Below are positions 1,352 through 26,190 of a stretch of 31,325 nucleotides of DNA, piece after piece. A program made the translations under genes and the position numbers. How positions within the stretch are numbered: position 1 is the first letter of the stretch; every line of letters begins with the position of its first letter. The notes below the pieces were generated by a model, which did not search any database, was not told the DNA's origin, and was given only the letters and a program-made list of their open reading frames with translations. This DNA comes from a virus (Duplodnaviria > Caudoviricetes), in the IMG/VR virus record IMGVR_UViG_3300050143_000043, positions 1 through 31,325 of that record, one strand, 5' to 3'.

Positions 1352-1620
1352 GCTGGGTCTCCCATCAGCAGTTCGCGCTGCACCGGTGCGGCCGACACGG
1401 CACGCAGACCCACTTGCCAGAGCACCGGGCCAGTGATGCACACCGGCACGTTGACGCTCAGGGTGCGATGGCCATGGCGCAGCGTCAGGATCACGCTGGT
1501 GTACATGTGCTGCTGGCTGGTGACGATCCACGACTTGCGGCGGGCCAAGGTGGCGCCCACGGCAATCGCCTGCATGTTGCGCTCGAAGCGCTCGCGGGTG
1601 CGGACTCCGGCGCCGGTCAT
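1348..1620 (-). CDS. Hypothetical phage protein
   Basis: ATG at 1620 overlaps the methyltransferase stop (ATGA); 90 aa. Confidence 0.6.
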   Translation of the reverse strand: MTGAGVRTRERFERNMQAIAVGATLARRKSWIVTSQQHMYTSVILTLRHGHRTLSVNVPVCITGPVLWQVGLRAVSAAPVQRELLMGDPA

Positions 1621-3350
1621 GCTGCGATCTCCTGAGCCCACTGCTCGCGGTAGTTGGCCGCCACGATTCGATGCATGGGCAAGGGGCTCACGCTGTTGCC
1701 GCACATGTGGACCTGTGCCGTTTTCGTCAGCAACTTACCTGCGGCGGTTCGGTCAATGATGTATGTCGCTGGGAAGTCCTGGGCGTTGTAAAGCTCACGC
1801 GGCACAAGCATGCGCAGTGTGATGTCAACGATGACCCAGGGCTCTCCACGCAGCCAAACTGTGACCAGTGCAAGGCGGTCATGTGTGGTCACCGTGGTCG
1901 CTGGGTCGCGCAGGTCGGCCCACTGGCCTCCGGTGCCGTGGTAGCGCATGAGGAACGCAGCGCAGCGTAAAGCGCCAGCTTCCTGATCCCTGCTTAGTTT
2001 GACCTCGACCATTTGCTGCTGGCTGCCGCTAGTGGTCACGGTGCTCATGGGCTGGCGCAGGTCTCGCGCCGGCGTGGTGTTGAACCCTCCGTTGGCCTGC
2101 ACCATGAATGCAGTTGCCAGCGACTGGCCGCCACCGCTAGCTGTGATCGTGCCCACCGGTCCGTTGATGTCGTTCACGCCGTGGCTGCGGCGCTTGGTCG
2201 AACCCTTGCCCTCGCCGTGCCCGGCCTGCACCAAATAGGCCGATGCCAGTGCGTGCTTGATGCCACCCGCCACCACGGTGCCCAGGGGTGCGCCCAGATC
2301 CAGCGCTCTCGCGGCCTGGCCCTCTCGCTCTCCATAGCCAACCTGCACGAGTGTGGGTGAAACCAAGGCGTGATGTGTGCCGCCGGCGATGACCGTACTC
2401 AAGGGGTCATTGATGCTGTGGACACTCTTGTGGGCGGGGCTGGTGCCGCGAAGCGGTGCAATGAAGGGCTCGGCAGCGTCCAGCACATAGCGTTTCAGGC
2501 CGACCGCGATCCGTTTCATCGTTGCTTCAGCAAGCGGGCGAGGTCGGTCGAAAATGCTGCGCCCTTCAATGCTCCAGTCGATGCACTCGTGCGCTGGGCG
2601 CCATGCTTGCTGCCCCTTTTTTGGTCGCTTGGCGTGTGTCTGCTGAGGCCAGACCACCGGCTGACCATCGAAGCGAGCCACAACATAGAGGCGTTCTCGC
2701 GTGCTGTGGGCACCCATGTCTGCATTGCAGATCACACACCACTCGATGGAGGTGGCCCCCATGGCTCGTAAGCCCTCGACGAAGTGCGTCCAGTTGCGGC
2801 CCGTGCGCTTTGGGCATGGAACCAGCCACTGGTCATGTACTGGGACTCGCTCACCAGGTCGTGCCACACGGTTCTTGCCGGTGGTCGGGTCGATTTCTAG
2901 CGTGAGCACGCGGCGGGTGTCGGGGCAACGCTTGGCAACCAAAGGTGCCCAAAGAAGCATTTGTTTGACGTTCTCCAGCGTGACAACACGGGGCTTTGTC
3001 TTGCCAACCCACTTGTGCACCGCCCAGGCCAGACTGCGGATGGCTCGACTGCGAGGCTGGCCCCCAAGGGCTTGGCTGTGGTGCGTGCAATCTGGGCTGG
3101 CGTGCAGCAAACCGACGAGCTGACCGCCTGTGGCCTCCAGTGGGTCAACCTCAAACACGTCGCTGCAGAAGTGCTTGGTCTGCGGGTGGTTCATCTCATG
3201 CATGCCAACTGCATCTGGGTTGTGGTTGACTGCAATGTCCACATGCCGGCCGATGGCCTGCTCGATGCCGGTGGAGGCACCGCCGCCACCCGCGAAGAGA
3301 TCGACCACCAGCTCATGGTGCAAGGGAAGTGCAAATTGAGGGGTCAGCAT
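1617..3350 (-). CDS. DNA (cytosine-5)-methyltransferase, phage orphan type
   Basis: Motif I VDLFAGGGG, catalytic SPDC, ENV, RERLY and C-terminal CGNSVSP; ATG at 3350 overlaps the RT stop (ATGCTGA). Confidence 0.93.
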   Translation of the reverse strand: MLTPQFALPLHHELVVDLFAGGGGASTGIEQAIGRHVDIAVNHNPDAVGMHEMNHPQTKHFCSDVFEVDPLEATGGQLVGLLHASPDCTHHSQALGGQPRSRAIRSLAWAVHKWVGKTKPRVVTLENVKQMLLWAPLVAKRCPDTRRVLTLEIDPTTGKNRVARPGERVPVHDQWLVPCPKRTGRNWTHFVEGLRAMGATSIEWCVICNADMGAHSTRERLYVVARFDGQPVVWPQQTHAKRPKKGQQAWRPAHECIDWSIEGRSIFDRPRPLAEATMKRIAVGLKRYVLDAAEPFIAPLRGTSPAHKSVHSINDPLSTVIAGGTHHALVSPTLVQVGYGEREGQAARALDLGAPLGTVVAGGIKHALASAYLVQAGHGEGKGSTKRRSHGVNDINGPVGTITASGGGQSLATAFMVQANGGFNTTPARDLRQPMSTVTTSGSQQQMVEVKLSRDQEAGALRCAAFLMRYHGTGGQWADLRDPATTVTTHDRLALVTVWLRGEPWVIVDITLRMLVPRELYNAQDFPATYIIDRTAAGKLLTKTAQVHMCGNSVSPLPMHRIVAANYREQWAQEIAA

Positions 3351-4696
3351 TTCGTAGCCTTTCGGTAGATCTTGGTCAGGTCGCCCTTCACGCTGTGCCC
3401 GCGCGCCATGAGGGCGTTGGCCAGGTGTGAGCGGTCTTTGTGGCTGTGGCTGGCTTGGCGCAGCAGGCCCATGTAGCTGTTGCCCGCTTCGAAGACCTCG
3501 TCGTCTGGCATGTCCTCGATGCGCTGCATGGCAACGCGCAGGGTGCGCGGCCTGGTCGTACGCCGCCATGGCTTGATGACGTGGCCGACAAAGTCAATGC
3601 CGCGCTCGACGGGCTGCAGGATGGTCTTGCGTGGGTTGAGCCGCACGCCCAGGGTTGAGGGCAGGAAGGCGTCAATGTCAGCCAGCGCAGCGTTCAGGCG
3701 CTGGGGTGACTGGTCCAGCAGGATGAAGTCGTCGACGTAGCGCACGTAGTGGCGGATACGAAGCACGTGCTTCACACGCTGGTCGAGGTCATCCAATAAG
3801 ACGTTGGCGAAGAATTGCGACGACAGGTTGCCGATGGGTAGCCCCGTGTCGGCTGGCGCGTTGAACAGACGCTTGTGCTCGGGCACCAGCGCCAATAGCT
3901 CAGGCGCGCTGCGCACCTCAACATCAGTGCGAGGATCATGGAACAGGATGGTCTCGGCCAGGGCCATCCACCATGGCTCATGGATGCGCCGCGCCAGCTG
4001 GTGGCGCAGGATGGCCTTGCGGATCGAAACAAAGAAGTTGGACAGGTCCAGTTTCAGGTAGTGCGCGGGCACTGACCAGTTTTGCGTGATGGACCTGACA
4101 TGGCTCTCCAGGCGCTTGGCACCATAGAGCGTGCCGCGACCAGGGATGCATGCGCAGGTGTCGGCGGTGAAGCCGGCGTAGAAGCGGGCCGCGACGCGGT
4201 TGCACAGCAGATGGTGCACGATGCGATCGCGAAAGCCTGACGCCCAGACTTCGCGTGGCTTGGGGTGCGTGACCACGAAGCAGATTGAGCGACCTGGTGC
4301 CCAGGTGCCCTCCACCAGGTCGTCGTACAGGCGGCGCAGGTTGCGCTCAAGGTTGGCCTCAAAGGCCAGGGCGCTGTTGCTGTTGCGCTTGGTGCGGCGG
4401 CAATCGAAATAGGCCTGCACCAGCTCAGCGAATGAAAGATCAGCAGCAGCGTATCCATCTGCGGACGGCTCGGGCGCGGAACTCGTTGTTCTTGTTGTTG
4501 TTGTTCTGGTTGCCGTTGTTGAAGTTCTGATACCAGGCCCAGCCGGAGACATCGAGCGATCTACATCGCCCACCCGATTGCTCAGGTGGGAAACTGCGCC
4601 AGACCGTGCAGGCGCGCTGCCTGTGGTGTCCGTGGTGCGCGTGGCGGTGGCCTTGTGGGCCAGCGGCTCGACCAGATTGAAAGAACGCTCAGTCAT
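3344..4696 (-). CDS. DGR reverse transcriptase (Brt-like); start codon uncertain
   Basis: FRDRIVHH, YLKLDLSNFF, GLPIGNLSSQFFAN (the DGR-type SQ motif) and YVRYVDDFILL; no intron maturase or endonuclease extension; adjacent to TR and avd. The ATG at 4696 overlaps the avd stop; the RT-like sequence begins near 4440. Confidence 0.95.
   Translation of the reverse strand: MTERSFNLVEPLAHKATATRTTDTTGSAPARSGAVSHLSNRVGDVDRSMSPAGPGIRTSTTATRTTTTRTTSSAPEPSADGYAAADLSFAELVQAYFDCRRTKRNSNSALAFEANLERNLRRLYDDLVEGTWAPGRSICFVVTHPKPREVWASGFRDRIVHHLLCNRVAARFYAGFTADTCACIPGRGTLYGAKRLESHVRSITQNWSVPAHYLKLDLSNFFVSIRKAILRHQLARRIHEPWWMALAETILFHDPRTDVEVRSAPELLALVPEHKRLFNAPADTGLPIGNLSSQFFANVLLDDLDQRVKHVLRIRHYVRYVDDFILLDQSPQRLNAALADIDAFLPSTLGVRLNPRKTILQPVERGIDFVGHVIKPWRRTTRPRTLRVAMQRIEDMPDDEVFEAGNSYMGLLRQASHSHKDRSHLANALMARGHSVKGDLTKIYRKATKC
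4457..4550 (-). repeat. DGR template repeat (TR), 94 bp
   Basis: Minus strand reads GTC TCC GGC TGG GCC TGG TAT CAG AAC TTC AAC AAC GGC AAC CAG AAC AAC AAC AAC AAG AAC AAC GAG TTC CGC GCC CGA GCC GTC CGC AGA T: ten AAC codons, aligning without gaps to both VRs. Confidence 0.97.
4569..4590 (-). other. RNA hairpin 5' of TR (candidate DGR RNA element)
   Basis: Minus strand CCCACCUGA-GCAA-UCGGGUGGG: 9-bp stem with one U-G pair and a GNRA tetraloop. Confidence 0.65.
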
Positions 4697-5063
4697 GGCG
4701 GCCTTGGCCTCCATGAAGCGGGCGCGTAACGCTGCGGCGCCACCCGTTGGTCTGCTTGCCGATGCTGGTGCTCAGCTCGATGGCCCGCGCATAGGCTGGC
4801 TTCGAGATCAGGCGCTTGTCCATGGCGAGGCGGATCATCAGCTCAGCGACTTGCAGCCGCTCAAGCAGGTCCATCAAGTGCGGCGCCTTGTCTTGTGCGA
4901 CGTTGGCCCGAAACACCGCGATGGTGATCTCGATGCACTCGTTGGTGATCTTCTCGCCGATGGAGCGCTTGAAGTCCCGTGGCATGTTCTTCACGAAGTC
5001 CGTGGAGACATCCAGCAGATCATAGGCAGCCTTGTAAATCGGCAGTTGGGTGTGGGTGGCCAT
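4689..5063 (-). CDS. avd: DGR accessory variability determinant (Avd-like four-helix bundle)
   Basis: 124 aa, helical and basic; LPIYKAAYDL, MPRDFKRSIG and SIGKQTNGW motifs; lies between target and TR. Confidence 0.9.
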   Translation of the reverse strand: MATHTQLPIYKAAYDLLDVSTDFVKNMPRDFKRSIGEKITNECIEITIAVFRANVAQDKAPHLMDLLERLQVAELMIRLAMDKRLISKPAYARAIELSTSIGKQTNGWRRSVTRPLHGGQGRHD

Positions 5064-5081
5064 GCTGATCAAATGACTGAA

Positions 5082-5540
5082 TTACTCAATGACCAATCTG
5101 CGGACGGCTCGGGCGCGGAACTCGCCGTACTTGAAGTCGTAGTACTGGCCGCCGTAGCCGAAGTCCTGAAACCAGGCCCAGCCGGAGTTGGTCTCGTGCT
5201 GCTGGCCAGACCAGTAATAGGCGCACTCAAACTCGCCCTTAAGGTTCGCGAAGAGCAGGGACTGCTCGGCCCGGGTGGGCAGCGTGCCGCCCTGCTTCTC
5301 GGCCCATTCAACAGCCTGTTGCCACGTCTGGTCTTCAACATCACCGGGCAGCAGCACCAGGTGGTGAGTGGGCTTGCCGTCGGCACCCAGGATCAAGCCC
5401 GCGTAGCGCTCGCCCTGGGCCAGTTCGATCTGAGCCGTTGGGATGCTGAGCGTGGTGGGCAGTGCGGCCTTGAAGGCCTCGATCATCTTGGCCAGCTGGG
5501 TGTGCTGAGCTTCGATCTGTTCAAGCGTCACTGTGGACAT
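5082..5540 (-). CDS. DGR target protein 1, DUF1566/C-type-lectin-like fold with C-terminal VR
   Basis: 152 aa; TWQQAVEWA, LPTRAEQSLL, YYWS, AWFQDF and RARAVRR pattern; carries VR1; GAGG RBS upstream. Confidence 0.92.
   Translation of the reverse strand: MSTVTLEQIEAQHTQLAKMIEAFKAALPTTLSIPTAQIELAQGERYAGLILGADGKPTHHLVLLPGDVEDQTWQQAVEWAEKQGGTLPTRAEQSLLFANLKGEFECAYYWSGQQHETNSGWAWFQDFGYGGQYYDFKYGEFRARAVRRLVIE
5096..5187 (-). repeat. DGR variable repeat VR1
   Basis: 92 bp collinear with TR 4457-4548; 15 mismatches, all at TR adenines (8 A>G, 7 A>T). Confidence 0.97.
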
Positions 5541-5569
5541 GTGTGCACCTCAATTAAATGGATGAATGA

Positions 5570-5929
5570 TCAAATGGGCAATCTGCGGACGGCTCGGGCG
5601 CGGAACTCGTTGGTCTTGGTGCTGCCGTGCTGGTAGCCGTAGTTGAAGTCCTGATACCAGGCCCAGCCGGAGACGCGGTGGTGGGTCTCGTTGCTCCAGT
5701 ACCAGTCCTGTTTGAACTGGTCGCGGTGGTTGGCCCACAGCAGGGCCTGCTCGACGCGTGTGGGCAGGTCGCCACCGATGCTCTTGGCCCAGTCCATCTG
5801 GGACTGCCAGGTGGCGTCGTCGTTGTCGCCGGGCAGCAGGATCACGTGGTGGCCTTCGCCCTTGTGGTCGCTGATGAAGCCGATGTAGGTCTCGCCCTCG
5901 TTCAGAGGGGGTTTTTCGAGTGCTTGCAT
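5570..5929 (-). CDS. DGR target protein 2, DUF1566/C-type-lectin-like fold with C-terminal VR
   Basis: 119 aa from ATG 5929 (AAGGA RBS); paralogous to target 1 (HVILLPGD, LPTRVEQALL, WYWS, RARAVRR); carries VR2. Confidence 0.92.
   Translation of the reverse strand: MQALEKPPLNEGETYIGFISDHKGEGHHVILLPGDNDDATWQSQMDWAKSIGGDLPTRVEQALLWANHRDQFKQDWYWSNETHHRVSGWAWYQDFNYGYQHGSTKTNEFRARAVRRLPI
5581..5674 (-). repeat. DGR variable repeat VR2
   Basis: 94 bp collinear with TR; 9 mismatches, all at TR adenines (4 A>G, 2 A>T, 3 A>C). Confidence 0.97.
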
Positions 5930-6048: not shown

Positions 6049-6759
6049 TCAGTCAGCCGCGCCGCCGTCGCCGGTCGACAAGCTGGGGTCATCGCCCTCG
6101 GCCAGAGCCTTGGCAGCCTCCCAGCCAGCAGTCCAGCGGGCCACCAACTCGTGGCGCATCACCGGGCAGTCGCTCTTGGGCTTGTCTTCCAGATAGGCCT
6201 GGTAGCCCTGTTCGTAGGCCTGCTCCAGTTCGGAATCAAGCGGGCCATCACCCAGCGACAAGATGCGCGCATCGCTCACGTCATCGCCTGGGCCGGGCTC
6301 CATGCCCTTGCCGTCGCCGTTCGGGTCGTACTCGTGGCCCAGGTCCATGGCGCGCTGGTCGTCTTCGCCGCGCACGGCAGCGACTTCGCCCATGTGGGCC
6401 TCGGCGTCGGCCAGGGCGATCAACACCGTCTTGCCCTGGCAGTCAATCAGGCCATGGCGGTTCGGGTCGTTCTTCGACATCGACAGCACCGCCTTGATGC
6501 CGTCCTTCACGGTGATCTGCTCCAACTCGGCCACCACGGTCACGCGGCCATCGCTGGCGATCAGGTGGGTGGCCATCTGCACGCAGGTGGTCACGCGCTT
6601 ACGCAGACGCTCGATCACATCGTCCTGCTTGTTTTTTGCCAGCTTGGGCCACACGTCGGGCAGCAGCTTGATCTCTTGCACGAGGGCCTGCAGCAGGTCC
6701 ACGCCAATGGTGTTGGCCGTCATGGCCAGGGTGTTCTTTTCGGGGTCTTGCTTGCTCAT
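6049..6759 (-). CDS. Phage protein with a C-terminal ribosome modulation factor (Rmf)-like motif
   Basis: 236 aa; LEQAYEQGYQA..CP..RWTAGWEAA parallels the Rmf pattern LERA..RGYQAG..CPY..WLGGW. Confidence 0.75.
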   Translation of the reverse strand: MSKQDPEKNTLAMTANTIGVDLLQALVQEIKLLPDVWPKLAKNKQDDVIERLRKRVTTCVQMATHLIASDGRVTVVAELEQITVKDGIKAVLSMSKNDPNRHGLIDCQGKTVLIALADAEAHMGEVAAVRGEDDQRAMDLGHEYDPNGDGKGMEPGPGDDVSDARILSLGDGPLDSELEQAYEQGYQAYLEDKPKSDCPVMRHELVARWTAGWEAAKALAEGDDPSLSTGDGGAAD

Positions 6760-6948
6760 TGCTTGGTCCTGGGTGAAAAGTGGTGGGGTGTATGTGACCG
6801 CCCGGCGCGACTCGGGCTATTGAGGCCTACCAACCAACGACGGTTGAAAAGGAGAAAAGTGCCTGCCTCTCACAGGGCTTCCTGCGGTCGAAACTGGTGG
6901 GCGGTGTTGCATCCCCCGGGAACCCCCAGAGGCACCGCCCGGAAGGGG

Positions 6949-7968
6949 TCAGGCCTGTGCGGCCAGTTCGTTGTCGCGCTTGGTCAAGGCTTCAAGCATC
7001 GAGGCCTTGTCTTCGCCTTCAGGCATGAGCTCGACTTCGTCGCCGATCAACTGCAGCGCTGCCAAGTCGGAGCAGTCTTCGACTTGCTTGAGGCCCGCCA
7101 CCAAATCAAAGGCTGCCGACTCATCGGCCAGCGCTGGCGCATCGGGGTTGATCTCTCCCGTGGCCATGTCCACCATGCCCATGTCGACCATTGGGTTGTC
7201 TTGAGGCAGGCCGATCTCGGCTTGCTCGTCCAGGCCAACGGCGCGGGCCATCTCGATGGATACGGGCAGGTACTTGAACAGACGGCGCACCACTGTCTTT
7301 TTCGCCATCTCCTCAAAGGCGCTGATCCATGGGCTGTCGGTCTTGCCGTACTTGATGGCTGTCTTGTAGCCCTGCGATTCGTTGCGGATGCGCTCGATCT
7401 CGGCGCGGCTCATCACATCGAACTGCACACCGCCGTCCTTGAGCTTTGCGACGGAGTAGACGAATGTGAGGGGGCCGCGATCAACTTTGTCCCAGGCTGG
7501 AATGTGGGTCAGGTTCGAATCCAGGCCCAACTGCACATGGAACTGGTCGGCCTCGTAGACGGCGCGGGCTTCCAGGCTGACGATCTGGCCAGAGCGGCGG
7601 GCCAAGTCGATCATGCCGCGATAGCCCACGATGAACTGCACCTCGGTGATGCCCTTGCGGCGGTTCTCAAAGGGCAGCAGGTAGGCGTGACCCAGGGCAC
7701 CACCGGGCTCCAGGCCCAACTGCGCGCACTGCATGATGGCGCCCAGGAAAGAGGCTTGATCCGAGTCGCCCAGCTTGGGGTTCTTGCGCACCTCGGTCAG
7801 GGCGATGCGCGCCAGGCGGTCGGCGGTCATGTGCTTGGGCAGGGCCAGGGCCATCTGCTTCTTCACGTTGTCGTCAGACAGCAGGCCTGCGATGGTCTTT
7901 GGCTTGTCGGCCTTGGTGGCGACGGCGGTGTTTTTGGTTGCGACGGCGCGCAGTGCTTGGGATGTCAT
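6949..7968 (-). CDS. recT: RecT-family single-strand annealing recombinase
   Basis: ALPKHMTADRLARIA, AQLGLEP, AYLLPF, FIVGYRGMIDLARRSG and EMAKKTVVRRLFKYLP. Confidence 0.95.
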   Translation of the reverse strand: MTSQALRAVATKNTAVATKADKPKTIAGLLSDDNVKKQMALALPKHMTADRLARIALTEVRKNPKLGDSDQASFLGAIMQCAQLGLEPGGALGHAYLLPFENRRKGITEVQFIVGYRGMIDLARRSGQIVSLEARAVYEADQFHVQLGLDSNLTHIPAWDKVDRGPLTFVYSVAKLKDGGVQFDVMSRAEIERIRNESQGYKTAIKYGKTDSPWISAFEEMAKKTVVRRLFKYLPVSIEMARAVGLDEQAEIGLPQDNPMVDMGMVDMATGEINPDAPALADESAAFDLVAGLKQVEDCSDLAALQLIGDEVELMPEGEDKASMLEALTKRDNELAAQA

Positions 7969-7974
7969 GACGGA

Positions 7975-8859
7975 TCACTCCTTGGTTGAAACGAGACGGA
8001 AATCCACGTAGGTCGTGGCGGGGTAGCTGATCGTTGCGGCCTTCTTGCTAATCAACTTGCGACGAAACTCTTTGCCGTCCGGGTAGACGAGGCGGGCTGC
8101 ATTGCCCATCTCGGCCAGCAAGTGGGCGCGGGCGCCCTCGATCACGCCCTCGTACTTGGCGGCCATCTCTTGCGCGGTCTGCATGACGGCGCGCCAGTGC
8201 TCGTGCATGGCCGTGGCCTCGATGGCGGTTCCATCGGTGCCTGGGTAGAGCTTTCGTAGGGTGTCCAGCGTCTTGCGGTCGCCGAAGTCCAGGGGCGGCT
8301 GCTTCTTGGGCTCGACGTACTTGGTCCAGAACTCAAAAGCCTGCTCGCGCATGGCGGCAATGGTTTCGTCGTCACGCTCGACGATGTAGGGCTTGAGGTC
8401 GTCGCCGATCAGGGCGAAGACGCGGGCGCGGTCGCGCTTGTGGATACCCAGGCCCCACTGCACTTGCGCGAGGTAATGCAGGGGCAGCTGGTCGGTTTCG
8501 TGGTCGCCCCATTCCTTGGCCTTGAAGGGGTGAACCGTCTTGATCTCGATGTTCTCGTCTGCCGTCTCGGCGTCGATCTCGGCCGCGAACATGGGAACTT
8601 CGGCGTCGATGTACCGCTCATTGCGGTTCACGATGACCAAGCCGTGTTCGGACTCGATCATGTCGATGATGTAGGGCTCAAGACGAGAGCCGCGGCGCTT
8701 GGCGGCCATGTTGCGGCCATCCTCCACCGGGGGCTTCATCTTGTCGATCCACAGGTCGGTGGCGGTCTTCCATGGGCTGATACCCAAGATGGCGGCGATG
8801 TCGCTGCCGCCGATGTATTTGCGGCGGTCGTGCGTGACGGGTTCGGCAATGGCGTTCAT
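7975..8859 (-). CDS. YqaJ-like viral recombinase/exonuclease
   Basis: RRKYIGGSDIAAILGISPW, G..LEP, EIKT and YLAQVQW; adjacent to recT; GAGG RBS before ATG 8859. Confidence 0.92.
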   Translation of the reverse strand: MNAIAEPVTHDRRKYIGGSDIAAILGISPWKTATDLWIDKMKPPVEDGRNMAAKRRGSRLEPYIIDMIESEHGLVIVNRNERYIDAEVPMFAAEIDAETADENIEIKTVHPFKAKEWGDHETDQLPLHYLAQVQWGLGIHKRDRARVFALIGDDLKPYIVERDDETIAAMREQAFEFWTKYVEPKKQPPLDFGDRKTLDTLRKLYPGTDGTAIEATAMHEHWRAVMQTAQEMAAKYEGVIEGARAHLLAEMGNAARLVYPDGKEFRRKLISKKAATISYPATTYVDFRLVSTKE

Positions 8860-10331: not shown

Positions 10332-10360
10332 AGTATGCACGATGCATAACCACAATGCAA
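10332..10360 (-). promoter_or_regulatory. pL-like sigma70 promoter
   Basis: Minus strand TTGCAT (10360-10355), 17-bp spacer, CATACT (10337-10332); overlaps the OL operators. Confidence 0.7.
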
Positions 10361-10372: not shown

Positions 10373-10417
10373 ACACAGCGCAAGATTAGATCAAGTGATC
10401 TAAAAATGCATGGGCGC

Positions 10418-10442
10418 AAAAAAGCCCGCTCGGGGCGGGCTT
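10418..10442 (-). terminator. Rho-independent terminator ending the cI-lipoprotein transcript
   Basis: Minus strand AAGCCCGC-CCCGA-GCGGGCTT-TTTT. Confidence 0.8.
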
Positions 10443-10571: not shown

Positions 10572-11204
10572 TCAAAGGGCAGGGGGTGTCGCTTTGTTTT
10601 GAGGCAGGTCAAACATGCCCACAAGCTGGACTGCGTGAGCGGTGCCGCCCGCGCTGTTTGGGTAATCAAAGCGCCCAATGACGACGCCACAGAATCGGGC
10701 TCGGCTTCTGTCGACCAATTCACCCGTGCTGCCAATCGCAACGAAGCGATATATTTTACTGGACTCGCCAAACATGCCGCCAATAAAGAACTTGTCCCCG
10801 TTGAATTCTTCGGCTGCAATTTCAATGATCGAGCCAGAGGTGCAAATTCTTTTGCCCCTCTCTTGCTCTGAGTCTTTCATTACCAAAGCCACCTTTGTTT
10901 GAGGCAGCTTCTGAAGCTCATCCCATTTCAATCGTTTGGCACCCCAAGATGCGAGCACAGCAGCGCCAGGGCTCAAATTGCCGTGCTCATCTGAAAACAT
11001 GGGGGCAAGGGCGGCCACGGCTTCGTCCAAGCTGGCCCATTCGCGTTTTGGCTCCACCTTGGGGGCTTCTGCTTCTGTAGCCTGTGGTGCGGTGGCCTGC
11101 GGTGCATTCGAAGCTTCCTCATGTTTCGAGCAAGCACCAAGCCCAAGAGTGAAGGCTAATCCAATCGCAGTCAATGCTACCTGGTAACTCCCTGACCTAC
11201 TCAT
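10572..11204 (-). CDS. Lipoprotein in the immunity region (candidate superinfection exclusion or lysogenic conversion)
   Basis: Hydrophobic leader ending in lipobox LGAC, then an Ala/Pro linker; visibly more AT-rich than its flanks; downstream of cI. Confidence 0.8.
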   Translation of the reverse strand: MSRSGSYQVALTAIGLAFTLGLGACSKHEEASNAPQATAPQATEAEAPKVEPKREWASLDEAVAALAPMFSDEHGNLSPGAAVLASWGAKRLKWDELQKLPQTKVALVMKDSEQERGKRICTSGSIIEIAAEEFNGDKFFIGGMFGESSKIYRFVAIGSTGELVDRSRARFCGVVIGRFDYPNSAGGTAHAVQLVGMFDLPQNKATPPAL

Positions 11205-11937: not shown

Positions 11938-12000
11938 TATGCGACTTGCATAACGTGGAGTTGCGCAGTATGCTTCGGCCTAAGTTGCGCAAAGTGCATA
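11938..12000. promoter_or_regulatory. OR operators (three 15-bp sites) overlapping a pR-like promoter
   Basis: TATGCG-ACT-TGCATA (11938), TGCGCA-GTA-TGCTTC (11962) and TGCGCA-AAG-TGCATA (11986), at an exact 24-bp period; pR is TTGCAT (11946)-17 bp-TATGCT (11969). Confidence 0.8.
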
Positions 12001-12810: not shown

Positions 12811-13103
12811 GCAAGCCCAAACCCTCAGTCATCCGCCTGTCCGACGACGGCCACTGGTGCATCTGCCACAAGTCCTTGCACCTGCTGGCCAAGCTGCCAG
12901 CGCTGCCCCTGCGCCTCAAGGGCCCAGGCATCGACGCCGTGCGCGACTTCGTGCAACTGAGCATCGGCGGCGGCCAGTTCCTGGCTGATGTCATCACGGG
13001 CACGATCTACGACCGCACGGGCGAGCACAACAACAACGCCCAGCTGCGCGTGCTGTACGTGCCCGAAGTGTGGCCTTCGAAGGTTGCCGAGGTGAGTGCA
13101 TGA
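12807..13103 (+). CDS. Hypothetical phage protein
   Basis: 98 aa; ATGA overlaps at both ends. Confidence 0.65.
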   Translation: MSKPKPSVIRLSDDGHWCICHKSLHLLAKLPALPLRLKGPGIDAVRDFVQLSIGGGQFLADVITGTIYDRTGEHNNNAQLRVLYVPEVWPSKVAEVSA

Positions 13104-14764
13104 GCGCAGTCCTCGACGCCGAATTCGATCTGGTCGACGACACCAGCGCCTTCTTTGCCCCCGTCTCGTCCGACCTGATCGACAGCCTGATTGGTCAGTA
13201 CGAGCAGATGCGCGTGAGGGTCGAGCGCGTGGCCGAGATCATGAGTGGCCCCGACATGGATGGGGCGCTGCATTATTTTGCCGAGCACGCAGCCGCGCAG
13301 GACCACCATCTCTCTCGCACAACTGTCAGCAGGATGTTCGATCTGACGGGCGCCATCGCCCATCTGAACGCCGCGTTCTGGTCCAAGGCCATGCAGCTGA
13401 CCGATGTGCTGGATGCCATGCCGCAGCAACGCCGCAATGAGTGGAACGAGTCGATCAGGAACCCGCTGGGCGTCAAAAAAGAGCGCTCCAACAGCGAATG
13501 GGTGACGCCACCCATCCCTGAGTTCACCGACGAAAACGTGCGCTCGACCCTCAAGGGACTGTTGCTCCAGCGCGAGACGTTCTTTGCTGAGCGTGTTGAC
13601 GGCATCTTTCGCGGCCTGTCAAAGTCCCACATCACCAACGCCCCCGAGGGCTTCGGCAAGCGCATGATCATCGCGCGCGCCGTGAACGAGTGGGGTTCTG
13701 TCGAGCACGGCACCGCTGGCGTGATCAACGATCTACGCTGCGTGATCGCCAAGTTCATGGGCCGAGACGAGCCCAAGTGGGATGCCAGCAGCGCCGTTGT
13801 GCGCTTTGCGCGTGGTCGCCGCGGTGAGTGGATCGACCTCGACGGTGGCGCCATCCGCATTCGCGTCTATGCCATCGGCACCGCCCATCTGGAGGTGCAC
13901 CCGGACATGGCTTGGCGCCTGAACTGCGTGCTGGCGCAGCTGTACCCCGCCGCAATCCCCTCACAGTTCCGCGAGCGCCCCAAGAAGAAGGCCAAGGCCT
14001 ACAAGCTGATCGGCCGCCCGCTGCCGTTCGCTGTGCTGGCGAGCCTGGGCGCGGTCGAGCCTGCGCGAGACCTGAACCCGGATCACGGCTATCGCAAGGA
14101 CACATGGGTCAAGGTGCCCGGCTGCTGGGACTTCAAGTCATCCAGCCGAGCCGCTCAGGTGCAGGCCGAGGCCGACCGGATCATGGAGAGCATCGGCGGC
14201 ACCAAGGTGCGCGAGCTTCGCTGGGCATTCGACTACGACCCCACCGAGGTGCTGCAAGAGATCTGCGCCAGTGGCTGCGTGCCTGACCAGAAGGCCCACC
14301 AGTTCTATCCCACGCCCGAGCGCCTGGCCCGCATCGCTGTGGACATGGCTGACATCGAAGAGCAGCACACATGCCTGGAGCCTAGCGCTGGCATGGGTGG
14401 GCTGGCTGACATGATGAAGCAGGCTTCGGCGTGGACTCACTGCGTCGAGGTCTCCCCACTGCACTGCAAGGTGCTGGAAGCGAAAGAGCACAGCGTCACG
14501 CAAGCCGACTTCTTGGCTTGGGCTGGTCATCCCGTCGATCGCATCGTCATGAACCCACCATTCAGCGAAGGCCGCTGGCAGGCGCACGTGCAGCACGCGG
14601 CATCTCTGGTGCGTCCTGGCGGCAAACTGGTGGCCATCCTCCCGGCCAGTGCTAAGGGCAAAGACCTGCTGCCGAGCTTTGACTGCGCTTGGCATGGCCC
14701 CTTTGACAACGAGTTCCCGGGCACGAGCGTCAGCGTCGTGATCTTGAAGGCGGAGGCAGCATGA
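13100..14764 (+). CDS. DUF4942-like protein with a C-terminal amino-(N6A-type) methyltransferase domain
   Basis: QFYPTP, LEPSAGMGGL (SAM binding), IVMNPPF (catalytic) and LVAILP; ATG 13100 overlaps the upstream stop. Confidence 0.85.
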   Translation: MSAVLDAEFDLVDDTSAFFAPVSSDLIDSLIGQYEQMRVRVERVAEIMSGPDMDGALHYFAEHAAAQDHHLSRTTVSRMFDLTGAIAHLNAAFWSKAMQLTDVLDAMPQQRRNEWNESIRNPLGVKKERSNSEWVTPPIPEFTDENVRSTLKGLLLQRETFFAERVDGIFRGLSKSHITNAPEGFGKRMIIARAVNEWGSVEHGTAGVINDLRCVIAKFMGRDEPKWDASSAVVRFARGRRGEWIDLDGGAIRIRVYAIGTAHLEVHPDMAWRLNCVLAQLYPAAIPSQFRERPKKKAKAYKLIGRPLPFAVLASLGAVEPARDLNPDHGYRKDTWVKVPGCWDFKSSSRAAQVQAEADRIMESIGGTKVRELRWAFDYDPTEVLQEICASGCVPDQKAHQFYPTPERLARIAVDMADIEEQHTCLEPSAGMGGLADMMKQASAWTHCVEVSPLHCKVLEAKEHSVTQADFLAWAGHPVDRIVMNPPFSEGRWQAHVQHAASLVRPGGKLVAILPASAKGKDLLPSFDCAWHGPFDNEFPGTSVSVVILKAEAA

Positions 14765-17341: not shown

Positions 17342-17770
17342 ATGACATCGATCGTTTTCACCGTGCCCGGGCAGCCGCAGGGCAAAGGCCGCGCCAAGAT
17401 CGTCAAGATCGGCGGCTTCTCCCGCATGGCCACACCCGACAAGACTGTGGCGTATGAAGGGCTCATTGCTCACGCTGGGCACCAGGCCATGGCAGGCCGC
17501 CCGCTCATCGAGGGCCCTGTGGCCGTCGTGGTCGACATGCGCTGCCAGGTGCCTGCCTCGTGGTCGAAGAAGAAGCAGGCCCAAGCCTTGATCGGCGAGG
17601 TCAGGCCAGTCACGAAGCCGGACCAGGACAACGTCCTCAAAGCCATCTTTGACGGCCTGAACGGTGTCGCGTGGAAGGACGACGTGCAGGTGGTTGAGAT
17701 CGTCAGCCGCAAGCGCTACGCACCCCTGCCGGGCGTGTACGTCGAGATCAAGCTGCTGGGGGTGGCATGA
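17342..17770 (+). CDS. rusA: RusA-family Holliday junction resolvase
   Basis: FTVPGQPQGKGR and KPDQDNVLKAIFDGLNGVAWKDDVQVV; GGAG RBS. Confidence 0.92.
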   Translation: MTSIVFTVPGQPQGKGRAKIVKIGGFSRMATPDKTVAYEGLIAHAGHQAMAGRPLIEGPVAVVVDMRCQVPASWSKKKQAQALIGEVRPVTKPDQDNVLKAIFDGLNGVAWKDDVQVVEIVSRKRYAPLPGVYVEIKLLGVA

Positions 17771-18270
17771 ATCAGCCCCCCACCATGCTCGACCCCTGCT
17801 GCGGCAGCCGGATGATGTGGTTCGACAAGCGCGACCCCGCCGCTGTGTTCGGCGACCAGCGTCGCGAGACCATCACGGTCACGGACCGTTCGCACGGTCG
17901 CGAGGATGGCACCCGCGAGCTGCGCATCGAGCCCGACACCCTGATGGACTTCCGGGCGCTGCCTTTCCCTGCCGGCGCTTTCAAGCTCGTGGCCTTCGAT
18001 CCACCCCACCTAGTGCGCGCCGATCGCAAGAGCTGGCTGGCGGCCAAGTACGGCAAGCTGGGCCCGGACTGGCGCGAGGATCTGCGGCAAGGCTTTGCCG
18101 AGTGCTTCCGCGTGCTGGAGCCTCACGGCGTGCTGGTGTTCAAGTGGAACGAGACGCAGGTGAAGGTGGGCGAGGTTCTGGCCCTGACGCCCGAGCGCCC
18201 CAAGTTCGGCCAGGTCTCCGGCCGTGCTGGCATGACTCACTTCCTGGTCTTCATGAAAGGTGCCGCATGA
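17767..18270 (+). CDS. Small SAM-dependent (putative DNA amino-) methyltransferase
   Basis: LDPCCGSRMMWFDK, VAFDPPH and ECFRVL..GVLVFKW. Confidence 0.85.
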   Translation: MNQPPTMLDPCCGSRMMWFDKRDPAAVFGDQRRETITVTDRSHGREDGTRELRIEPDTLMDFRALPFPAGAFKLVAFDPPHLVRADRKSWLAAKYGKLGPDWREDLRQGFAECFRVLEPHGVLVFKWNETQVKVGEVLALTPERPKFGQVSGRAGMTHFLVFMKGAA

Positions 18271-21477: not shown

Positions 21478-21565
21478 TTTCAGCAGCGCCTAGCTCGACG
21501 GGGTGAAAGCGGGTTTCCCTGACCCGTTGGCGCTGCGCCTATTTCGGGGCCAGCAAGGGGCTGGA

Positions 21566-22189
21566 ATGAAGAAGATTGATTTGACGGGCCGAACTTTCGG
21601 CCGCCTGACCGTGATTTCTGAGGCTCAAGCCAATTCTCGGAAAGTGCGTTGGTATTGCTCATGCGAGTGCGGTCAGACGTCGACTGTGTTGGCGTGCAAC
21701 CTCACCTCTGGCAAGACATCAAGCTGCGGGTGCATGTCAAAGGCTGGCCTCTCATTGGCTCGCAAACACGGTCTGCACGGGGCGCCCGAATACTCGGTTT
21801 GGCGCGGCATGAAAAACCGCTGCCTCAACCCTTTGGAGCCTGCATTCCGAAGCTACGGCGGGCGAGGAATCAAGGTTTGCGAGCGCTGGTTGAGCTTTGA
21901 GAACTTCAGGGCCGATATGGGCGAGCGACCCGAAGGCGGAACCATTGAGCGCATCGACGTCAATGGCGATTACTGCCCCGCGAACTGCAAGTGGGCAACC
22001 CTCGCAGAGCAGCAGGCGAATCGTCGCAACACGGTGCGCGTGCAGATCAACGGCAAGACCCAGCCTCTGAAGCACTGGTGCAAAGAGCTTGGGCGCAGCT
22101 ACAAGGCAGTTCACCTGCGACTTACGCGATACGGCTACAGCATTGACCGTGCGCTTGACCTGCCGAGTGGATCGGCTCTACTGACATGA
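21566..22189 (+). CDS. Free-standing HNH-type (homing-endonuclease-like) protein
   Basis: DLTGRTFGRLTV, WYCSCECG, SCGC, YSVWRGMKNRC, YGGRGIKVCERW and TIERIDVNGDYCPANCKWAT..QQANRR. Confidence 0.85.
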   Translation: MKKIDLTGRTFGRLTVISEAQANSRKVRWYCSCECGQTSTVLACNLTSGKTSSCGCMSKAGLSLARKHGLHGAPEYSVWRGMKNRCLNPLEPAFRSYGGRGIKVCERWLSFENFRADMGERPEGGTIERIDVNGDYCPANCKWATLAEQQANRRNTVRVQINGKTQPLKHWCKELGRSYKAVHLRLTRYGYSIDRALDLPSGSALLT

Positions 22190-23616
22190 CCAAGCCACGC
22201 CACGTCAAGACCGCAGGCGCGGCCCTGGCCAGCACCTCGCGCCCCGTGCGCGTGGGTGATGGTGGTGCAGCTGCCCTGCAAGTGGGCGACGGCCTTGAGA
22301 ACGTCGTCGCAGGCCTGGGCACCGACCGGGACAAGATGTCCTACTCGGTCTACGGCATGCCCCGTGTGCTCACGCGCATGGAGCTGGAGAACATGTACCG
22401 CGGCTCTTGGCTCGCCAAGAAGATCGTCAACGCCGTGGCCGACGACATGACCCGCGAATGGCGGCATGTGGTCTTCGACGACGAGAACGAGGCCAGCCAG
22501 TTCGCCATCGAGCGCGCTGAAAAGCGCTTTGGCATCAAGGCCAAGATGAACGAGGCCCTGCGCTGGTCGCGTTTGTACGGTGGCGCCCTGGTGATCATTG
22601 GCACCCGCGACAAAGATCTATCCAAGCCACTCAAGGTCGAGAACGTCAAGAAGGGTGATCTGCGCTACCTGCACGTGATCGACCGGTGGCGCTGCTCGCC
22701 TGCTGGCTCGCTGTGCATGGATCTGGACAGCCCGAACTTCGGCCTGCCTGAGCACTACATCCTGGCCGAGTCGGCACTGCGCGTGCACCACACCCGCGTG
22801 CTGCGCTTCAACGGCCAGAGGCTGCCGTACTTCGCCTGGCGCTCAAACGCCATGTGGGACGACAGCGAGTTGCAGCACACGCTGGACAGCCTGACCAACT
22901 GCGACACGGCCACGCGAGGCATCGCCACGATGCTTTTCGAGGCCAATGTGGACGTGGTCAAGTCTGAAGGGCTGGGCGATCTGCTGGCCACCAAGGGTGG
23001 CGAGGCGGTGATCACCAAGCGCTTTCAGCTGGCGGCCATGCTCAAGAGCTTCAACCGCATGCTGCTGCTGGACGGCACCGAGAGCTACGAGAAGAAGTCC
23101 AACAGCTTCGCCAACCTCGACAAGATCCTCCAGCAGTTCATGGTGGACGTCTCGGGTGCCTGCGACATCCCCATGACGCGCCTGTTCGGACAGTCAGCCG
23201 GTGGCCTCAATGCCAACGGCGACAACGACGTGCGCAACTACTACGACATGGTGTCTGGTAAGCAGGAAACCGAGTTGCGGCCCCAGCTGGAGTACCTCGA
23301 TCAGATCTTGGTGCGCTCCGAGTTGGGCGCCATGCCCGACGACTACCGCTTTGACTTCAACAGCCTGTGGCAGGTCTCAGAGGTCGAGCAGTCCGAGGTC
23401 GAGGCCAACCGGGCCACAAGGGACGCGACCTACATCGACAAGGGTGTGATCACGCCTGGTGTGGCTGCCCGGGATTTGAAAGAGCGCGGCACTTACCGCA
23501 ACCTGACCGACGCCGATGTGAAGGCGGCTGAAGCGGCCCAGCCTGAGCCCGGCCAGAAGCCCGATCCCGAAGGGGACGAGGGCAAGAAGCCGATCAAGCC
23601 AACCCCTGACGAGTGA
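22186..23616 (+). CDS. Portal protein (DUF1073 family)
   Basis: Follows terL; YRGSWLAKKIV..ADDMTREW, WSRLYGGA and IPMTRLFGQSAGGLNANGDND..NYYD. Confidence 0.9.
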   Translation: MTKPRHVKTAGAALASTSRPVRVGDGGAAALQVGDGLENVVAGLGTDRDKMSYSVYGMPRVLTRMELENMYRGSWLAKKIVNAVADDMTREWRHVVFDDENEASQFAIERAEKRFGIKAKMNEALRWSRLYGGALVIIGTRDKDLSKPLKVENVKKGDLRYLHVIDRWRCSPAGSLCMDLDSPNFGLPEHYILAESALRVHHTRVLRFNGQRLPYFAWRSNAMWDDSELQHTLDSLTNCDTATRGIATMLFEANVDVVKSEGLGDLLATKGGEAVITKRFQLAAMLKSFNRMLLLDGTESYEKKSNSFANLDKILQQFMVDVSGACDIPMTRLFGQSAGGLNANGDNDVRNYYDMVSGKQETELRPQLEYLDQILVRSELGAMPDDYRFDFNSLWQVSEVEQSEVEANRATRDATYIDKGVITPGVAARDLKERGTYRNLTDADVKAAEAAQPEPGQKPDPEGDEGKKPIKPTPDE

Positions 23617-24011
23617 CCGACATGACCATCGCAACCTGTGACGTCGTGTGCTCGCTGCTGGACCCGTCCAGCAACCCCGTCGAGGGTGCGCGCATCACGG
23701 CGCGGCTGACCAGCCACATCGTCAATTCGAGCCTGATCGTGCCCCTGGTCGAGTACGGCGTGACCAACGGCCACGGGGCCTGCACGCTGCCACTGGTGCC
23801 CAACAGCACCAGCGGTTCACGCACGACCTACACCTTTGAGATCTTGCTGCCCGGCGCGAAGGCGCCGACCTATTTCCACGACATCACTGTGCCCGCCGTG
23901 GCCACGATCACCCTGGCTGAGTTGCTGGGCTGGACTGGCTCCGGTGGCGGCTCGTTCCTGTGGGACGACGCCGCGATCTGGGACGACACGCAAACCTGGG
24001 CTGAAGCATGA
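23613..24011 (+). CDS. Hypothetical virion-associated beta-sandwich protein
   Basis: GTGA overlap with the portal stop; [21 protein letters not shown]; ends [13 protein letters not shown]. Confidence 0.7.
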
Positions 24012-24559
24012 CCATTCAAACCATCGAAAACGGCGTGACGCTGTATGCGTTCCGCACGACCGTCAATGCCAACTTCGCCGAGGTGTCGCAGCTGATCGCG
24101 GCCATCCCGGCAGGTCCGCAGGGCCCAGCTGGTGCCACTGGGCCTGCCGGCCCTCAGGGGCTTCAGGGGCCTGCTGGTCTGCAAGGTGCGCAAGGCTTGA
24201 AGGGCGACACTGGCGCTGCGGGTGCAGTGGGGCCGCAAGGTGCCGTAGGCGCAGCTGGCGCCAATGGAGCCTCTTACGTTCCTGCTGACACGGTGGCTGT
24301 ACTGGCCTCCCGCGCCTTGACCAGCGCAGATGCAGGTAAGACGCTGGAGGTGACGGCATCGGGCGTGACGCTCACGGTGCCAAACGGCCTGACTCTGAAG
24401 CCTGGTGTGGCCATCATCAAGCACAGCAGCGGCACATCCGTGACTGTCTCTGGCGGCGCCACCATCAATGGCGGCACAACCACTCTGGTCATCACCGCTG
24501 CTGTCGCAGCGTTGCTGCCTCGCAGTGCCGCTGACGCTTACACCCTTGCAGGTGCCTGA
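24008..24559 (+). CDS. Collagen-like triple-helix repeat protein
   Basis: 18 uninterrupted Gly-X-Y triplets (24113-24274) followed by a small beta-rich C-terminal domain. Confidence 0.88.
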
Positions 24560-24561
24560 TC

Positions 24562-26190
24562 ATGAGTTTTGAGCGCATCTTGACTGCGATTGCCGTGGCT
24601 GCGCAGGCTGCTCCCCCGCGCTATCGCATCGTGGCGATTTTGGGGCAGTCAAACTCTGTGAGCTATGGTGCATATGACGGCGCTGCTGATGCTGTCGATG
24701 CCCGCGTACTGCAGTACGGCGGCATTGCCGGCGAGCCAGCTACATACCGCCAGATCGTTCCAGTCAATGGGCCTCTGCGACAGCCAAACATTACTTACAA
24801 CCCATCTCAGACCAACTTTAACGGCATCGGCCATTCATTTGGGCAGGCCTATCTTGGGCAGCTTGGCAGTGGCGAGAAGGTTTTGCTGGTGCCGTGTGCA
24901 GTGGGCGGCATGGCGATCTTGGGCGGCGTGCGTTCGTGGTGCCCAGCAGGTGGCCGTGATTTTGAATTTGCGGTCAGCCAAGTGGCCGGTGCTCTGGCCG
25001 CTGCGCAGGCGGTTTACCCCGGTTCGTACATCGATGGCGCCATCATCATCCAGGGCGAGTCTGACGGCGATGCAGGTATCACCCAGGCCCAATACGCTGC
25101 CGCCAGCGGGGCACTCATGGCTGAGTTTCGCCAACGCACTGGCGCGGCCAATGCCTGGTTTGTTTGGGGCTCCATGGTTCCGGAGGCTATCGCCAATCGC
25201 GGTGGGTCCATCCAACAGATTGACCTTGCACACAAGGCCATTCCGACGACGATCCCGCGAACCGCATTTGTCTCAGGCATCAGCGGTCAGACTGCTGACA
25301 ACCTGCACTACCTGGCGCCAGCGGTGCGAACGATGGGCGCCAACATGGCCGCTGCGGTGTCCACGGCCATTGCCAACACCTCGCCAGTCGTGCCTGCTGA
25401 GCCTGCCGCCGTGACCCTGTCGAGCACGGCTCAAACGTCATCGCGAATCGATCTGTCGTGGACGGCTGCCAGTGGCACCTCTGATTACATCGTCGAGTAC
25501 AAGCGTACTGTCGATGCGACATGGCAGGTCTACGCTGACGCCATCGGCGCCACAACCAGTACCTCAATCACAGGACTGTCATCGGGTACGGCCTACGAAT
25601 TCCAAGTTTTTGCCTACAACGCGGGTGGTGTTGGGCCTGCATCCAATACGCTGACAGTCAGCACTCAGGCTGCGGCAGCCCAGGTTGTCCGCATGCAGAC
25701 CCTGGCCAACGTGATTGAGTCGGGATCTGCTGCAAATTGGGGTTATGCCTGGTCTGCCGGCAACCTCAACACGTCGATTGCCAACAGCCCAACCCCAGTG
25801 GCGGCAGCAAACGCAGACTTTGTGTTGAGCGCCCGCCTCGCTGGAGTAGCAGCAAGTGGATCAAGTGTGTTTGGTGTGCACACGGACGCCACAGCCACGG
25901 CTTATAGCGGCATGGCTCATGGTGTGTACAACAACACCGGCACGGGCAAATGGTCGGTCATTACTGGCGGCGCTACCGGTGTGACCCCATCCGGCAGCGC
26001 AAACATCGCGGCCACAGTTGGTGACATCGCGCGATACAGCAAAACAGGCACGACGCTCGTTGCTGAGATCTCCAAAGACAGCGGCGCCACGTGGACCAAT
26101 CTGCACACGTGGGCTGGTGCAACCGCCCGCGTCCCTGTCTTGGGCTTCGGCGCATCGGGCGCGGCCATCGACACTATTTCGCTGCTGTAA
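24562..26190 (+). CDS. SGNH carbohydrate esterase (sialate O-acetylesterase/DUF303-like) with a fibronectin type III domain and a C-terminal beta domain
   Basis: ILGQSN, IIQGESDG and DNLHY catalytic blocks; FN3 motifs IDLSWTA, YIVEYK and ITGLSSGTAYEFQVFAYN. Confidence 0.85.
   Translation: MSFERILTAIAVAAQAAPPRYRIVAILGQSNSVSYGAYDGAADAVDARVLQYGGIAGEPATYRQIVPVNGPLRQPNITYNPSQTNFNGIGHSFGQAYLGQLGSGEKVLLVPCAVGGMAILGGVRSWCPAGGRDFEFAVSQVAGALAAAQAVYPGSYIDGAIIIQGESDGDAGITQAQYAAASGALMAEFRQRTGAANAWFVWGSMVPEAIANRGGSIQQIDLAHKAIPTTIPRTAFVSGISGQTADNLHYLAPAVRTMGANMAAAVSTAIANTSPVVPAEPAAVTLSSTAQTSSRIDLSWTAASGTSDYIVEYKRTVDATWQVYADAIGATTSTSITGLSSGTAYEFQVFAYNAGGVGPASNTLTVSTQAAAAQVVRMQTLANVIESGSAANWGYAWSAGNLNTSIANSPTPVAAANADFVLSARLAGVAASGSSVFGVHTDATATAYSGMAHGVYNNTGTGKWSVITGGATGVTPSGSANIAATVGDIARYSKTGTTLVAEISKDSGATWTNLHTWAGATARVPVLGFGASGAAIDTISLL

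Follow-up and report, generated by a model that had tools for sequence, protein, structure and literature searches.

In the diversity-generating retroelement (DGR) of phage BPP-1, Avd and the reverse transcriptase (RT) copy the RNA of a template repeat (TR) into cDNA, making mistakes at adenines, and this cDNA takes the place of a variable repeat (VR). Here we analyse a DGR cassette in a 31,325-nt phage contig (IMGVR_UViG_3300050143_000043; the window, below, is this whole stretch), which resembles that of BPP-1 (mtd-avd-TR-brt) in its order of VR, avd, TR and RT, its adenine-specific changes and its C-type lectin (CLec) scaffold. While BPP-1 diversifies a single large tail receptor-binding protein of the CLec1 type, the window has two targets of 119–152 aa, named target 1 (T1) and target 2 (T2) below; the late-region tail receptor-binding target of a BPP-1-type element was not found in this contig, which lacks its distal tail region, and both targets lie in the leftward arm. 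The window also has an RT-15 RNA upstream of the TR and no strong GC hairpin after the VRs, while BPP-1 has an RT-10 RNA between TR and RT according to a study of RT motifs, some of them proposed for DGRs (PMC5737381); RT-15 does not appear in the main text of that study. The explanation that serves best as a whole, and to which we give a slightly better than even chance, is that this early-arm DGR diversifies intracellular, evolvable binders. It draws its support jointly from the DGR itself, the CLec fold of the targets, their position in the arm, tail genes free of VRs and non-random codons at the variable positions.

Related cassettes are carried by the cultured phages Magia (MT701587; gp47, gp46, Avd gp45, RT gp44 and a remote gp57) and vB_PL1 (PV072756). 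Both share with the window the order T1-type target, T2-type target, avd, RT-15/TR, RT, and the location of the cassette in the same arm between repressor, recT and integrase; identity to the window is 65% for RT, 68–70% for Avd, 53–60% for T1 (gp47 and gp57 in Magia) and 54% for T2 (gp46). They differ in phage backbone and likely in their betaproteobacterial host, and Magia has a third, remote target. The Magia announcement noted a potential DGR with short targets gp47 and gp57 and suggested a change of host range, leaving the early location undiscussed (PMC7883833); gp46 likewise carries a VR, beyond the two targets named there. The window further has the gene order and the short targets, two to three per cassette, of class B1 (TG-TG-AVD-TR-RT) with CLec2 targets of category d1 (DUF1566 only) of Wu et al. 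2018, in whose survey (PMC5758913) short proteins with DUF1566 alone make up half of the category d targets. Two loci of the survey described below, L130 and L127, appear in Table S1 of Wu et al. as rows 35 and 40, respectively; they are RT homologues at 68% identity. Wu et al. searched up to 20 kb around each DGR for structural genes; most such rows have an empty phage-homolog column, and multi-target DGRs near lineage 4 were considered probably not phage-associated, with the remark that 'the TR is not translated in vivo'. Our account differs from theirs in placing these cassettes in the early arms of prophages and in finding that the RT frame continues across the TR. DGRs with several VRs are also recorded in Burkholderia, Ralstonia, Pseudomonas and Collimonas (PMC3521204). 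The LdtA-type CLec2 targets of Legionella and the C-terminal domain of Legionella Lcl (PF07603, 8q4e) belong to the same fold family; the Legionella proteins are exported to the surface, while the targets of the window lack an export signal and have neither a collagen stalk nor a lipobox. The cassette type is thus already catalogued by Wu et al. and annotated in Magia, and it is not unique. Added here are its lineage-wide early-arm position, the lack of tail targets, the binder-like selection, the assignment of the avd-TR spacer to RT-15 and the read-through of the RT frame. The cassette consists of the following features.

5570..5929, minus strand: T1, 119 aa, a stand-alone Lcl_C/DUF1566 domain of the C-type-lectin fold (PF07603, E 1.2e-5, below cut-off)
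5581..5674, minus strand: VR1, 94 nt, 9 mismatches to the TR, each at a TR adenine
5082..5540, minus strand: T2, 152 aa, Lcl_C/DUF1566 domain (PF07603, E 5e-5, below cut-off)
5096..5187, minus strand: VR2, 92 nt, 15 mismatches to the TR, each at a TR adenine
4689..5063, minus strand: avd, 124 aa (PF22296, 46.4 bits versus cut-off 40; phrog_3206)
4545..4727, minus strand: Rfam RT-15 structured RNA (RF03018), 170.4 bits versus gathering threshold 82, full model
4457..4550, minus strand: TR, 29 adenines in 94 nt, 10 AAC codons
3344..4696, minus strand: DGR reverse transcriptase, likely start ATG 4696, which overlaps the avd stop by 8 nt

That the cassette is a real DGR is practically certain. The original prediction described a complete two-target element, and this description holds: there are one TR and two VRs, TR adenines account for 24 of 24 mismatches (chance about 5.5e-13 with random placement on the TR), and avd and RT are uninterrupted. 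A VR search of the whole window found no VR besides VR1 and VR2. Avd also matches NF033474 (E 1.5e-13, below the cut-off of that model), and the RT carries the motif YVDD and matches PF00078 (E 9e-14) and phrog_1423 (E 5e-107). The description of the RT needs an amendment, as the 456-aa open reading frame takes in the spacer RNA and the TR (alternative starts are at 4714 and 4552). The 3' ends of VR1 and VR2 are alike, and both diverge from the TR from 5580 and 5095 on, respectively. Hairpins after them are weak (–0.5 and –3.8 kcal/mol), and the relatives in Table S1 of PMC5758913 have hairpins scored 'weak' or 'no'. Counting every adenine, the nominal capacity of the TR is 9.6e15 variants; the 15^10 variants per target that had been calculated from the ten AAC codons are arithmetically right and are a more realistic ceiling, since adenines of CAG, GAG and AAG codons hardly change in relatives.

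The phage is temperate and has a lambdoid gene order: leftward arm, cI-like and cro-like genes, replication genes, terminase, portal, protease and major capsid. Its host is likely a betaproteobacterium, because the named hosts of the best RT matches are mostly Betaproteobacteria and Pseudomonas. The cassette is situated in the leftward arm, behind the cI/cro switch, together with the following elements.

1617..3350, minus strand: C5 cytosine methyltransferase gene, start overlapping the RT stop by 7 nt
6949..8859, minus strand: yqaJ and recT, early-arm markers upstream of the cassette and co-oriented with it
10334..10348, no strand assigned: operator-like palindrome, predicted OL, just upstream of the first leftward-arm gene
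11938..11952, no strand assigned: second copy of the palindrome, predicted OR, between the cI-like and cro-like genes

As originally predicted, recT, yqaJ and the C5 methyltransferase gene share the orientation of the cassette, which lies more than 13 kb from any structural gene: the start of terS is 13,493 nt from the first target, and the late genes are on the opposite strand. From T1 to the end of the window successive genes overlap or sit within 29 nt of each other (T1-T2 29 nt, T2-avd 18 nt, avd-RT –8 nt). Elsewhere the arm contains gaps of 151, 189 and 119 nt, the latter two upstream of T1. The 15-nt palindrome, a pattern picked after the sequence had been read, occurs in exactly two copies in the window, which flank the immunity region; two copies were found in 0 of 100 shuffles, and copies with 2 mismatches, seen at 10358 and 11986, are no commoner across the genome than chance would give. 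The pair would fit OL and OR and repressor control of the leftward arm. The claim that the cassette lies downstream of a predicted pL stands in part: gene order and the palindrome support it, while a sigma-70 scan of the window returned 0 promoter sites. The window ends 3.3 kb beyond the RT; integrase, sheath, baseplate and fibre-tip region are all missing from it, and by itself it leaves room for a tail target.

A survey of relatives makes clear that the small non-tail targets and the early-arm layout are the rule of this lineage. RT matches were found in 581 IMG/VR stretches and 308 in GTDB genomes, of which the best 80 of each were used, and 18 further loci were added from a T1 search; this gave 170 loci with RT, 130 of them non-redundant at 95% (window and Magia included), with flanks of at most 10 kb and genes called by a custom script. 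The loci are related, so their counts are not independent. In 99 of the 106 loci with sufficient upstream DNA there are 2–4 small VR targets (VRs per locus: 0 in 4, 1 in 3, 2 in 63, 3 in 34 and 4 in 2); their median length is 156 aa, and 258 of 262 are no longer than 260 aa. An integrase or excisionase gene follows downstream of the cassette in 83/130 loci and precedes it in 1, a co-oriented early marker (integrase counted) is present in 105 of the 113 loci of at least 10 kb, and remote targets are scattered among other leftward-arm genes. When 90 of the 148 recurring neighbour families listed were scanned, their best matches were integrases, ParB, repressors, recombinases, SSB, methylases, nucleotide enzymes, two endolysins and one holin-like protein; a head or tail family is the best match of none of the 90, and three show weaker structural secondary matches. 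Since the flanks of the survey reached 10 kb at most, two complete phages were checked. Magia has 3 VRs and vB_PL1 has 2, all in the early arm, and a whole-genome search found no VR in the tail genes of either.

The same holds for longer forms of the targets. Among 27 scanned (25 of 26 longer homologues and two long targets from survey loci) none matched a tail family; they are scattered singletons, several of which are tandem doubles or probable chance read-throughs. In two proteins, L166:681-1940 and P0014, a phage domain that weakly resembles the beta-clamp (phrog_3007, phrog_947, PF02767 E 0.009) precedes the DGR-type CLec domain; in L166 it is a DNA-metabolism domain, and the L166 protein bears a VR. 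In a quick tree avd-adjacent and upstream targets cluster apart (14 and 17 changes versus 41.3 and 33.6 shuffled), and Magia gp47 falls with T1, gp46 with T2. The T1/T2 pair is old and specialised, and single and duplicated forms also occur. An obligate T1-T2 heterodimer is doubtful, because T1-type genes are found alone or remote and loci L055 and L161 carry near-identical T2-type repeats. The latter (L055:7709-9340 and L161:8387-9335) look like recent tandem duplications with identical bodies and different VRs. Targets accompanied by a deleted or truncated RT, or alone beside recT, were seen in L003, L005, L010 and L181 (Shewanella phage vB_Sb_QDWS) and seem frozen or orphaned. In one Burkholderiaceae contig two cassette copies (L158 and L159) lie 62 kb apart with identical TR and VR.

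The targets are predicted with high confidence (predicted local distance difference test scores 95.9 for T1 and 95.0 for T2) as Lcl_C/DUF1566 folds, and in these models the VRs lie at the C-terminal tips of C-type-lectin-fold proteins. The best PDB match of both in Foldseek is 8q4e, the Legionella Lcl C-terminal domain (template-modelling score 0.70 for T1), and viral structure matches include further short DUF1566 phage proteins. T2 has in addition a predicted N-terminal helix before the lectin domain (residues 6-25), conserved in 45 aligned sequences. T1 starts at ATG 5929; a GTG further upstream would yield 133 aa. Consistent with the proposal that the two proteins have neither signal peptide nor transmembrane segment, hydropathy and lipobox heuristics (not SignalP) detected no export signal in T1 or T2, whose maximum 19-residue hydropathy is 0.19 and 0.82, respectively. 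Within the target family a lipobox is found in 0/274 members and a mildly hydrophobic N-terminal stretch in 10/274; 7 of 262 targets have a 19-residue window above 1.6. We consider it probable that the targets are non-virion soluble proteins. Matches to filovirus glycoproteins (E above 0.004, 30 columns) were treated as chance.

It appears that the variable positions have been shaped by selection. In 2274 AAY codons from 262 VRs the commonest residues are Tyr (467), Asp (329), Gly (318), Asn (301) and Ser (272). Tyr (1.5x), Gly as GGC (1.6x), Leu (3.7x), Ser and Thr exceed expectation, while Pro (3 versus 16 expected, 0.18x), Ala (likewise 0.18x) and Cys (20 versus 161 expected, 0.12x) are depleted, and the two adenines of AAY vary non-independently (chi-square 876). 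Adenine-bearing scaffold codons stay fixed in relatives, AAG adenines included: changes were found in CAG in 4/423 cases and in GAG in 3/222, versus 1436/2092 at position 1 of AAC. Usage of Tyr, Gly, Ser and Asp recalls the protein-binding paratopes of antibodies, and the variable positions look like a selected, paratope-like binding surface. We also considered tolerated cysteines as a sign of cytoplasmic location and rejected the idea, Cys being depleted both at variable positions and in target bodies.

The copy in the window may still be mutagenic. The stretch is present in contigs from leaf-litter runs, among which are related phages at 80–90% identity and the TR itself. Among the differences listed, those inside VRs fall at TR adenines in 13/13 cases in one comparison and 10/12 in another, and in run X2 one contig has eight TR-adenine changes in VR1, agreeing at these sites with neither the TR nor VR2. 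With related phages and the TR among the contigs, and the VR2 allele unchanged, such differences need not stem from activity of the window copy; for the VR1 allele no full-length match was found among the pieces listed. Near-identical locus pairs are mostly silent, 21 of 22 being free of any difference and resembling one element filed twice. The informative pair, L081/L131, has an identical TR and differs at 17 of 33 adenine sites and 0 of 69 other sites.

Taken together, the template of this DGR has rewritten T1 and T2, two small stand-alone lectin-fold proteins of the leftward arm, at their C-terminal tips. In the lysogen cI would repress the cassette, and on induction it would be expressed; the RT would be translated by coupling to the avd stop, through RT-15 and TR, and Avd-RT, as in BPP-1, would copy TR RNA with adenine errors into cDNA that replaces the VR. 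T1 and T2, made after infection or induction, would then act in the cytoplasm as evolvable binders, with variable proteins of the host or of rival elements, defence components for example, as their ligands. Early expression of the targets seems fairly likely. That binding of the ligand serves counter-defence or host takeover is a tentative suggestion, and an intracellular counter-defence role nevertheless appears to be the most likely single reading. A wider generalization, that a large lineage of proteobacterial temperate phages uses the DGR as an intracellular 'nanobody library' of 2–4 specialised single-domain binders, freed from cI repression at induction, re-randomised by an RT whose translation passes through its own template and selected against fast-changing defence proteins or rival-prophage proteins, is less likely than not.

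Several observations speak against early intracellular binders. Every structural match of the targets is a surface or extracellular binder, and neither T1 nor T2 matches any PADLOC family. Cys is depleted in target bodies (0.7% versus 1.4%) as well as at the AAY codons, which gives no support to a reducing location, and RT sequence-context effects may partly underlie the codon bias. The VR2 allele of the window is unchanged in contigs of 4/4 runs. To these should be added the relatedness of the surveyed loci and the empty promoter scan, together with a weak terminator-like site at 6862-6876 (the number of such sites is at chance level) and a terminator annotated in the Magia record immediately upstream of gp47. 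Because of the latter two sites and the 189- and 119-nt gaps, transcription of the cassette may be separate from pL.

A separate promoter leads to the strongest competitor, which we still regard as unlikely: the cassette could be a moron-like unit expressed from its own promoter in the lysogen, whose variable proteins would benefit the host, for instance through exclusion or sensing of incoming phages whose proteins they recognise. The upstream gaps of 119–189 nt and the Magia terminator would suit such a unit, as would the fact that its neighbours vary between phage types, Mu-like ones included. It is more difficult to reconcile with the orientation of the cassette, which is always that of the leftward arm, with remote targets scattered through the same arm, with the overlap of the RT with the next phage gene and with the finding that no effector gene recurs beside the cassette in the 90 neighbour families.

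We give somewhat less credence to the notion that T1 and T2 belong to the virion as small accessory adhesins, bound non-covalently to tail or capsid (T2 via its N-terminal helix) and tuning attachment as in BPP-1, in which case the finding would be ordinary. Here the strand opposite to the late genes, the 13.5 kb to terS, the VR-free tail genes of two complete relatives and the absence of any tail-family fusion in 27 longer forms outweigh the resemblance of the CLec fold to adhesin tips, the conservation of the amphipathic helix in T2-type proteins, the host-range change suggested for Magia (PMC7883833) and the predominance of tail proteins among viral DGR targets as called in PMC8144416.

Proteins made in the cytoplasm might also take effect once the cell has lysed, binding neighbouring cells or competing virions as soluble lectins or decoys. 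We consider this improbable: the lectin-like fold, whose closest solved relative is an extracellular adhesin domain, and the Cys depletion agree with it, while placement in the early arm would be poorly timed for a lysis product and the residue usage recalls that of protein-binding paratopes. Finally, a selfish or dormant passenger whose targets have no selected function, to which a VR2 allele constant over four runs and the orphan targets without RT might point, is very improbable given YVDD in 125/130 RTs, the non-random VR amino acids, the clustering of T1- and T2-type targets by position (14 changes against 41.3) and the adenine-confined changes of L081/L131.

The RT frame has an unusual relation to the template. 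RT-15, present in 8/8 relatives scanned, spans the end of avd and the avd-TR spacer up to the 5' edge of the TR, and the window RT has no in-frame ATG between the TR and the first conserved RT helix. Of 117 loci 81 were usable for register analysis, and in 69 of these the TR stands in one fixed register with the RT. No ATG follows the TR in 64 of the 69, all 64 having an upstream ATG before a stop, while off-register loci have their own ATG in 12/12 cases. This register is shared by 12 of 15 spacer-length classes, a frame-blind motif test gave 84/108, and in 73/106 loci no stop interrupts the RT frame upstream as far as the avd stop, with an ATG near the latter in 66. A functional leader peptide was considered and rejected: codon-position entropy is flat in the leader (0.70/0.73/0.74 versus 0.68/0.53/1.21 in the RT core), and therefore it is the frame that is kept, not a peptide. 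RT translation would thus be coupled to the avd stop, with ribosomes passing through RT-15 and TR. In Pseudomonas loci such as L077, L081, L136 and L140 an in-frame stop lies in or just before the TR and is followed by ATGs inside the TR; an ATG follows such a stop in 13/13 loci having one. Loci L049, L057, L061 and L080 and row 46 of Wu et al. have extra genes, including methyltransferases, between avd/TR and RT.

In PMC8144416 phage DGRs are treated as tail-tropism devices, and most short-target cassettes were left without phage assignment in PMC5758913. Should T1 and T2 work within the cell, phages would have a second use for targeted hypermutation, an intracellular arms race, and a disulfide-free scaffold of 119 aa with ~10 freely varied positions would be a natural in vivo binder library. 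The question is testable with cultured phages that have the same cassette (Magia, vB_PL1, vB_E192a) and with prophages of Pseudomonas isolates. A literature search in which most subscription papers lay outside the searched text found no functional study of the cassette, no claim that the lineage targets early-arm proteins and no paper tying RT-15 to it; the accessible portions of PMC12860723, PMC11661182, PMC13220884, 10.1101/2024.10.15.618418 and 10.64898/2026.09.22.753630 have nothing on the cassette.

Some other genes of the window deserve mention. Directly upstream of T1 is a gene for 236 aa (6049-6759, minus strand) with a C-terminal stretch resembling ribosome modulation factor (PF04957 and NF011162, above cut-off); L008 and vB_PL1 have homologues close to the cassette, the one of vB_PL1 being annotated as FtsK. 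Directly after cI, in an AT-richer stretch, 10572-11204 (minus strand) encodes a protein of 210 aa that matches no family and whose N-terminus resembles a lipobox, a candidate for a lysogen-expressed exclusion or moron gene; a hairpin and T-run follow near 10416-10440. There are three DNA methyltransferase genes (1617-3350, 13100-14764 and 17767-18270). In the late region (21503-26190, plus strand) an HNH gene lies between terL and portal, and portal and head protease are separated by three additional genes, for proteins of 132 aa, of 183 aa with collagen-like repeats and of 542 aa with weak tail-protein matches.

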